Origin: Gemmata obscuriglobus
Lineage (GTDB): Bacteria > Planctomycetota > Planctomycetia > Gemmatales > Gemmataceae
NCBI RefSeq assembly: GCF_008065095.1
Contig: NZ_CP042911.1
Coordinates: 1,560,001-1,592,000, forward strand
Length of the DNA stretch: 32,000 bases
Reading direction: 5' to 3'
This document shows positions 29,301-29,622 of the stretch, one piece after another (the stretch's first letter is position 1; every line of letters begins with the position of its first letter). The notes under the pieces were generated by a model, which saw only the letters and a list, made by a program, of their open reading frames with translations, searched no databases and was not told the DNA's origin. The position numbers and the translations under genes are program-made.

Positions 29301-29428
29301 TTGATCGGCCCCTGCGCGGGCAGCAGGTGCGCGCCGTGCTCAACCGCGGCCCTGAAGCGGTCCGCAGGTGTGCTGGTGTGCCCGTCGCGCGGCGCGTGGT
29401 CCGGGTGATGTAGGTCCTTCACGACCAC
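26336..29428 (-). CDS. dabA: DabA-like protein (DUF2309/UPF0753, PF10070), the beta-carbonic-anhydrase-like subunit of DAB inorganic-carbon pumps
   Basis: The N-terminal block is [44 protein letters not shown] provides Cys-x-Asp (27917-27925). [24 protein letters not shown] provides His-x15-Cys (27311-27358). The start is uncertain: GTG at 29428 or 29422 is preferred because a sigma-54-type promoter sits at 29476-29491. The ORF track's ATG at 29524 is the alternative. Confidence 0.85.
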   Translation of the reverse strand: [1030 protein letters not shown]

Positions 29429-29475
29429 CAGTGTACTCGCCTGGGCATAAATTGGTGTATGGGGGTAATGTGGCA

Positions 29476-29491
29476 CGCAATTGGCGTGCCG
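29476..29491 (-). promoter_or_regulatory. Candidate sigma-54 (-24/-12) promoter directed into dabA, embedded in a palindrome
   Basis: The minus strand reads CGGCACGCCAATTGCG, which is GG-N10-GC in the context of the TGGCACG-N4-TTGCW consensus. It is part of the palindrome ggcacgc-aattg-gcgtgcc (29472-29490). A sigma-54-dependent activator gene lies 1.8 kb away on the divergent strand. Confidence 0.5.
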
Positions 29492-29584
29492 GCGCGCTGC
29501 GTGCTGGATGGGGCCGTTGTTCACGTTCGGCCCGTGCGAAGTCTACAGGACTTCGGGTCACAAGTCGTCAGGTCCGCAAGTCGT

Positions 29585-29622
29585 AACGTCACAAACCATT
29601 CTCTCACCGGATTTGTAACGTT
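29585..29622. promoter_or_regulatory. Candidate activator-binding inverted repeat in the dabA / sensor-kinase divergent spacer
   Basis: The half-sites are aacgtCacaaa (29585-29595) and tttgtAacgtt (29612-29622), matching at 10 of 11 positions and separated by 16 bp. The repeat sits ~100-135 bp upstream of the putative -24/-12 element in a locally AT-richer stretch. Confidence 0.3.

Follow-up and report, generated by a model that had tools for sequence, protein, structure and literature searches.

What controls the genes of a DAB-type CO2/bicarbonate pump in a heterotrophic planctomycete? This question is raised by a 32,000-nucleotide (nt) stretch of the Gemmata obscuriglobus genome (contig NZ_CP042911.1, positions 1,560,001 to 1,592,000; the whole stretch is called the window below), in which the dabA and dabB genes are arranged divergently from the genes of a two-component system. 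The original prediction, made from the letters of the window, had placed a sigma-54-type -24/-12 promoter in the spacer between the two gene groups, with dabA as its target and the divergent kinase and activator as its partners. We found that this element is preserved in front of dabA in most of the Gemmataceae loci compared, and we consider it likely that positions 29476-29491 of the minus strand represent a genuine, one-directional sigma-54 promoter of dabA, dabB and a second antiporter-like gene, driven by the adjacent kinase and regulator.

A conserved -24/-12 element upstream of dabA

The element reads CGGCACGCCAATTGCG on the minus strand (29491 to 29476) and is located 47 nt before the dabA GTG at 29428. 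It agrees with the sigma-54 consensus TGGCACG-N4-TTGCW at 14 of 16 positions, retains the core GGCACG-N4-TTGC exactly, and keeps the GG (29490-29489) and GC (29478-29477) dinucleotides 10 nt apart. The exact core occurs once in the window, against 0.14 occurrences expected; matches to the whole 16-mer with at most two mismatches number five against 4.1 expected, which is not above chance. Taken by itself, the window gives weak evidence; the decisive support comes from the comparison across loci.

The comparison set consists of 80 dabA loci fetched from Planctomycetota and Verrucomicrobiota, in which the positions of dabA, dabB, kinase and regulator genes were found by tblastn and the 450 nt preceding each dabA were scored with a sigma-54 weight matrix. 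The window genome itself corresponds to locus L081 (Gemmata obscuriglobus UQM 2246, assembly GCA_000171775.1, contig ABGO01000254.1); its closest relative is G. algarum, with a DabA identity of 94%. Seventeen loci, the window included, have the promoter or the kinase-regulator gene pair, and are referred to as the Gemmataceae group. In 15 of these 17, the best sense-strand match reaches 11-18 bits and lies 20-72 nt before dabA. No strong sense match was detected at the corresponding position in the other lineages of the set (Isosphaeraceae, Pirellulales, Verrucomicrobiota and others), which are also devoid of kinase and regulator genes beside dabA. Altogether, matches of at least 11 bits number 15 in the 8,085 nt formed by the 105-nt sense windows before dabA and 111 in 1.77 Mb elsewhere, i.e., they are enriched about 30-fold before dabA (80 loci, both strands, 1.78 Mb in total). 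All 15 belong to the Gemmataceae group, and arithmetic on the same counts gives an enrichment of about 130-fold within the clade. The proposed pairing of a promoter directed into dabA with a divergent kinase and activator is thus borne out, and so is the conservation of the GG-N10-GC pattern in the spacers of the relatives.

All 16 orthologous dabA sites share GGCA, T at -14 and GC at -13/-12 without exception, and their consensus is TGGCACG-N4-TTGCT. The 40 nt on each side hold almost no information in this alignment, which is anchored on the motif. The flanks have diverged to saturation, which argues that the motif is no relic of recent common ancestry. Based on standard sigma-54 geometry, transcription is predicted to start at 29463-29467 of the minus strand, about 12 nt past the -12 GC; a start near 29465 would leave dabA with a leader of about 37-43 nt.

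Tandem dyads and a genome-specific insertion in the spacer

Analysis of half-site spacing revealed a second conserved signal in the spacer, whereas plain 6-mer and 7-mer counts in the spacers did not rise above those in shuffled sequences. In the window it is composed of two dyads of the form TGGYCG-N5-CGRCCA, 20 bp apart from centre to centre. Dyad 1 (TGGTCGCCCGGCGGCCA, 29737-29753) matches TGGTCG-N5-CGACCA at 11 of 12 positions and ends 25 nt before the kinase ATG, and dyad 2 (TGGTCGCGCGGGCGCCA, 29717-29733) matches at 9 of 12. Nine loci have such a tandem pair with a spacing of exactly 20 bp. The 4,777 nt of the clade spacers contain 15 dyads that match at 10 or more of 12 positions, against 0.31 in shuffles. 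The looser pattern TGGY-N9-RCCA was counted 17 times in 6,596 nt (two of these 17 being the promoter itself), whereas 23,600 nt upstream of the other dabA genes yielded it a single time. Across loci the dyad centres are mostly situated about 73 and about 93 nt upstream of the -24 GG, as is classical for enhancers of the NtrC type; for the stronger dyad of G. algarum the distance is 143 nt. We regard the tandem dyads at 29717-29753 as the conserved enhancer of the locus, to which the regulator would bind.

The spacer was also said to be AT-richer than its surroundings, and in fact the window, which is generally of 70-80% GC, falls to 52-62% GC over the approximately 350-bp gap between dabA and the kinase gene. 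Spacer alignment identified a 119-nt segment at 29546-29664 that is present in the window genome and missing from G. algarum. This insertion is itself AT-richer, and its predicted fold is a long, nested hairpin (-30.6 kcal/mol, z = -4.1). Its presence places the enhancer 235-255 nt upstream of the -24 GG instead of about 125-145 nt, a doubling of the distance between enhancer and promoter. The same segment bears on three candidate activator sites that had been proposed earlier. All the repeats listed for them are indeed there: CGAAGTC-N5-GACTTCG at 29537-29555, the tandem copies of CAAGTCGT at 29561 and 29577, and AACGTCACAAA with its partner TTTGTAACGTT at 29585-29622, which pair with one mismatch. 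Yet two of the three lie within the insertion, and the third (29537-29555) straddles its edge with the right arm inside; all of them take part in the nested hairpin. Their assignment as activator sites was therefore abandoned in favour of the conserved dyads.

As for the insertion itself, no second copy was detected in the window or in the dabA loci, and Rfam gave no match anywhere in the window. A mobile repeat was considered and rejected: the 120 single matches returned by a metagenome scan with its terminal 16-mer all ended within about 20-28 nt and are thus chance hits.

A SulP transporter gene as a probable second target

In the window genome, the regulator gene is followed by a gene for a SulP-family transporter of 568 amino acids (aa), located at 8041-9747 of L081 (window-equivalent about 32815-34521, beyond the window). 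We found that in the loci with the kinase-regulator-SulP organization, a separate -24/-12 site precedes the sulP start by 34-49 nt in eight out of eight cases, the window genome included, where the site reads CGGCACGAGCGTTGCC and falls just past the window end (L081 7991-8006). A TGGYCG-N5-CGRCCA dyad is placed 84-139 nt upstream of this site in seven loci and 427 nt upstream in L038. This dyad, often the perfect TGGTCGGACGACGACCA, is located in L081 at about 7899-7915, in the 3' end of the regulator gene. There it falls in the last regulator codons (WSDDDQ), as it also does in L013, L014, L016, L037 and L038; apparently, TGGTCGGACGACGACCA is read both as protein and as binding site.

A different arrangement was observed in L010, where the kinase and regulator genes are positioned at the far end of the operon and sulP and dabA are divergent, each with a -24/-12 site and sharing two dyads. 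Overall, the linkage of SulP with dabAB was noted in three gene orders and two phyla, with sulP following the regulator gene, just upstream on the same strand, or just downstream (the loci include L081, L001, L010, L013, L020 and L030), and this variety argues for a shared function of SulP and DAB. Judging from the repeated dyad and promoter pattern, the same regulator probably drives a second sigma-54 promoter at sulP, and the two targets would make up a small DAB and SulP uptake regulon.

The divergent sensor kinase and regulator

The gene at 29779-31230 of the plus strand encodes a membrane sensor histidine kinase of 483 aa with HisKA and HATPase_c domains. Two hydrophobic, presumably transmembrane segments (residues about 6-37 and 164-193) flank a periplasmic domain of about 125 aa (residues about 38-163). 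This sensor domain was not assigned to any Pfam family even at E = 10, and the PDB sequence matches of the protein are confined to the kinase core. A single-sequence AlphaFold model (mean predicted local distance difference test score 82.8, about 91-97 over most of the sensor) predicts a four-helix bundle. A fold search against the PDB returned only generic four-helix-bundle neighbours, of which chemoreceptor ligand-binding domains, NarQ and KinB come closest, none of them at significant scores. The kinase core is closest to ZraS/AtoS, with all scores below the equivalog cut-offs.

The second gene of the divergent pair (31249-32000, plus strand, cut by the window end) encodes an NtrC-family sigma-54 activator, for which Pfam recognizes the REC and Sigma54_activat domains. 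The full protein has 484 aa and a C-terminal HTH_8 domain, and the complete set of REC, Sigma54_activat, AAA_lid_14 and HTH_8 was seen in the full-length regulators of L081 and L001. It carries the motifs GESGTGKE and GAFTSA, the latter being a minority variant, as most orthologs have GAFTGA. Domain content and motifs thus agree with the earlier description of the divergent genes as a kinase and a REC/sigma-54 activator. The regulator scores high on the AtoC, ZraR and NtrC models, highest on NtrC and AtoC, and in each case below the cut-off; its score on the NtrC model TIGR01818 is 464.7 bits against a cut-off of 558.6, which makes it an NtrC-family activator and not NtrC itself. The label "NtrB/NtrC-type" given to the pair consequently holds at the level of the family. 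The regulator is an enhancer-binding protein of the REC-AAA+-helix-turn-helix (HTH) type, but the pair is not NtrB/NtrC proper of nitrogen regulation, since the regulator fails to reach the equivalog threshold of NtrC and the kinase sits in the membrane and has a ZraS/AtoS-like core.

The dab operon and the start of DabA

On the other side of the spacer, dabA (26336-29428, minus strand) encodes 1030 aa from the GTG at 29428, with GTG 29422 as an alternative start, and is recognized by the Pfam DabA model (PF10070) at 1.4e-235. The adjacent dabB (24862-26343, minus strand) encodes a NuoL-like protein of 493 aa with Proton_antipo_N and Proton_antipo_M (PF00361) domains. The two therefore form the pairing by which DAB systems are defined, a PF10070 DabA gene beside a PF00361 antiporter-like DabB gene. 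They are followed by a third gene (23471-24865, minus strand) for a second antiporter-like membrane protein of 464 aa (Proton_antipo_M, 3.8e-23). In 62 of the 80 loci from Planctomycetota and Verrucomicrobiota, dabB is immediately followed by a second antiporter-like gene, so that DAB in this group appears to consist of DabA and two antiporter-like subunits. The third gene was picked by analysis of GC content at third codon positions (GC3) together with Pfam; a competing open reading frame (ORF) at 23457-24929 was rejected as being in the wrong frame, its product being rich in Arg, Pro and Gly and without a Pfam match.

The start of DabA had been expected at GTG 29428 or 29422 instead of the longest-ORF start at 29524. 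Compared with G. algarum, 29429-29524 contains a 2-nt indel, which indicates that this stretch is not coding, and the public gene call (GCA_000171775.1) also starts DabA at 29428. The expectation is thus upheld, with the correction that the codon at 29524 is a GTG and not, as had been written, an ATG.

A gene for a D-isomer 2-hydroxyacid dehydrogenase (22436-23425, minus strand) lies 45 nt past the third dab gene on the same strand. No terminator-like site was seen before it, and it may be co-transcribed with the dab operon.

The proposed circuit and its alternatives

The arrangement suggests the following course of events. The divergent membrane kinase would sense a signal, for which a shortage of inorganic carbon is the most plausible guess, through its periplasmic four-helix bundle, and would phosphorylate the adjacent NtrC-family regulator (REC-AAA+-HTH). 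The regulator would then bind the two tandem dyads, 20 bp apart, at 29717-29753, and assemble there into an active oligomer, which would loop to the closed complex of the sigma-54 holoenzyme and open it with ATP. Transcription would proceed from near 29465, and translation from GTG 29428 or 29422. Activation by the adjacent membrane kinase and NtrC-family regulator is the most likely mode of control. A more specific version, in which the kinase serves specifically to detect inorganic carbon in the periplasm (bicarbonate, CO2 or a tightly linked cue, e.g., pH) and switches on both DAB and SulP via sigma-54, is put forward tentatively, and we would sooner doubt it than assert it.

Several observations weigh against the assignment of the promoter and its circuit. 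With 11.0 bits, the window site is the weakest of its close group, and it has C at -26 and G at -11. The weight matrix by which all sites were scored was written from the published consensus. In L006 the kinase and regulator genes are present and the GG-N10-GC element is weak (5.3 bits); conversely, L008 and L015 have the promoter without a recognizable dyad or an adjacent regulator. In the window, as much as 235 and 255 nt separate the dyads from the -24 GG, and dyad 2 has a degenerate sequence. Being part of a coding sequence, the sulP dyad could owe some of its conservation to the protein. As the loci come mainly from one family, the co-occurrence of the promoter with the two-component genes may reflect a single ancestral event. 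Finally, the presence of sigma-54 itself is assumed from literature on other planctomycetes: an E. coli RpoN query gave no tblastn match to rpoN in 84 sequences (81 dabA loci, L082, L083 and the window), a result which says nothing on the whole genome.

Some of these points would also be explained if the sigma-54 promoter is real and its activator is encoded elsewhere, the dyads being autoregulatory operators of the kinase-regulator operon. The dyads end so close to the kinase ATG, and in the window so far from the promoter, that such a role is conceivable, and L008 and L015 keep the promoter in the absence of an adjacent regulator. Yet the distance between dyads and promoter is tightly held at about 73 and 93 nt in many loci, the same dyad recurs before the sulP sigma-54 promoter where no kinase start is near, and in L010 the dyads stay between the dabA and sulP promoters though the kinase and regulator genes have moved to the far operon end. 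We therefore regard an activator encoded elsewhere as unlikely.

Less probable still is a chance match without function, with dabA read from an unrecognized housekeeping promoter. High-GC DNA easily yields GGC and GC-rich words, and at up to two mismatches the consensus is as frequent in the window as in shuffles. This does not account for the positional enrichment of about 30-fold (about 130-fold in the clade) amid unconserved flanks. Moreover, no sigma-70-like site was detected in 22300-32000 by a scan that was not tuned for planctomycetes.

It had further been proposed that a single palindromic site could fire in both directions, toward dabA and toward the kinase gene. The palindrome itself proved to be exact: the 7-bp arms of GGCACGC-N5-GCGTGCC (29472-29478 and 29484-29490, within the span of 29472-29490 given for it) are perfectly complementary. 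Owing to this symmetry, the plus strand reads TGGCACGCAATTGGCG at 29471-29486, again with the GG-N10-GC spacing and at 10.0 bits, and the site of L016 is likewise palindromic, with 11.9 bits on the antisense strand. In G. algarum, the same -24/-12 element is followed after the -12 by TTGCTCTCAGC where the window has TTGCGTGCCAC, so that G. algarum has neither the palindrome nor the GG-N10-GC of the plus strand. Its antisense strand reaches 5.9 bits at best, and an antisense site is lacking in most other loci as well. In addition, position -14 of the plus-strand reading is G, whereas T is found in all 25 conserved sites (16 of dabA and nine of sulP), and a promoter at this site would be separated from the kinase ATG by 293 nt and would have its enhancer on the downstream side. 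Bidirectional firing is thus not supported by the comparison and is highly improbable; we judge the plus-strand reading to be no promoter and conclude, on the strength of this comparison, that the palindrome appears to be a local accident of this genome and the promoter one-directional. Equally hard to credit is that GGCACGC-N5-GCGTGCC serves as the operator of an unrelated dimeric factor with an incidental -24/-12 likeness, for in spite of the exact 7-bp dyad symmetry, conservation is limited to the half-pattern in dabA sense (GG-N10-GC and the consensus bases beside it) and does not extend to its symmetric partner.

Other features of the window and the compared loci

A few further features were noted. 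In L007, a Gemmataceae metagenome-assembled genome, two genes are inserted between the kinase gene and dabA, one encoding a DUF1559/N-methyl pseudopilin-like protein and one without a recognized function; an antisense -24/-12 site of 16.1 bits (TGGCACCCGGCTTGCT, position 4746, minus strand) is aimed into them. At 703-766 of the window, between two SPFH/Band_7 genes, lies an 18-nt perfect inverted repeat (GTGGCACAGACATTCCTG and CAGGAATGTCTGTGCCAC, arms 28 nt apart), which shows a TGGCAC-N... likeness on both strands without the -12 GC and is probably a hairpin or a terminator-like element. The minus strand also contains a 775-aa ORF (2878-5205) with Sigma70_r2/r4 domains of the extracytoplasmic function type in the middle of the protein, and a 1288-aa ORF (18170-22036) of very high GC3 without a Pfam match.

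Relation to known systems and significance

The organization of the locus resembles several classical systems. In the rhizobial DctB/DctD-dctA system, the genes of a membrane sensor kinase and an NtrC-family activator diverge from a transporter gene that has a sigma-54 promoter and tandem sites about 100 nt upstream. The Gemmata locus shares with it the divergence of two-component sigma-54 activator genes from a transporter target with tandem upstream sites. In contrast, it targets a DAB CO2/bicarbonate pump and SulP where the rhizobia have a C4-dicarboxylate carrier, its sensor is predicted to form a four-helix bundle and not a fold of the DctB type, and the half-site is TGGTCG/CGACCA; no orthology is implied. 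Similarity to the E. coli ZraS/ZraR-zraP and AtoS/AtoC systems extends to the proteins, the kinase core being closest to ZraS/AtoS and the regulator scoring high on the AtoC and ZraR models, and to the divergent sigma-54 target adjoining the two-component operon in ZraSR-zraP. However, all scores remain below the equivalog cut-offs, so that neither protein is an ortholog. Both divergent promoters of zraP-zraSR depend on sigma-54, whereas here the conservation is on the dabA side only. In turn, the glnAp2 promoter controlled by NtrB/NtrC has tandem dyad enhancers about two helical turns apart (TGCACC-N5-GGTGCA), and NtrB is a cytoplasmic kinase controlled by PII. The two tandem 6-N5-6 dyads upstream of a -24/-12 promoter are shared with it; the membrane-bound kinase with a periplasmic domain is not. 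The architecture is thus classical (DctBD-dctA, ZraSR-zraP, NtrBC-glnAp2), and it is the target that appears to be new.

Control of carbon-uptake genes is otherwise associated with the LysR-type regulators CcmR, CmpR and CbbR. A screen in H. neapolitanus pointed to LysR and Crp/Fnr regulators for a DAB-containing CO2-concentrating mechanism (bioRxiv 10.1101/476713). All these are one-component, sigma-70 regulators of autotrophs, unlike the putative two-component sigma-54 enhancer system of a heterotrophic planctomycete described here. As for sigma-54 in this phylum, a planctomycete rpoN was shown to complement a Salmonella rpoN mutant (Leary 1998, as cited in PMC3906078), and sigma-54 regulons in Planctomycetia were surveyed in 2025 without mention of bicarbonate, inorganic carbon, DUF2309 or sulfate permease (PMC12316311). 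Our search of a literature library found no paper linking DabA/DAB, bicarbonate transport or inorganic carbon with sigma-54, which agrees with the statement of the original prediction that such control of a DAB pump had not been described.

DAB pumps are widespread in heterotrophs, while the regulators reported so far are one-component LysR or Crp/Fnr proteins of autotrophs. The locus analysed here offers a testable circuit, made of a sensor kinase, an NtrC-family activator, a half-site (TGGTCG/CGACCA) and two candidate sigma-54 promoters, one for DAB and one for SulP, and with it a handle on how a heterotroph senses its carbon supply. The linkage in three gene orders and two phyla also leads to the prediction that SulP and DAB work together, and the combination of the dyad with the -24/-12 element gives a signature by which the regulon can be sought in the genomes of Gemmataceae. 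If the kinase does sense inorganic carbon, the locus would encode the first CO2/bicarbonate-sensing circuit of the two-component, enhancer-dependent kind, and a heterotroph would be its host.

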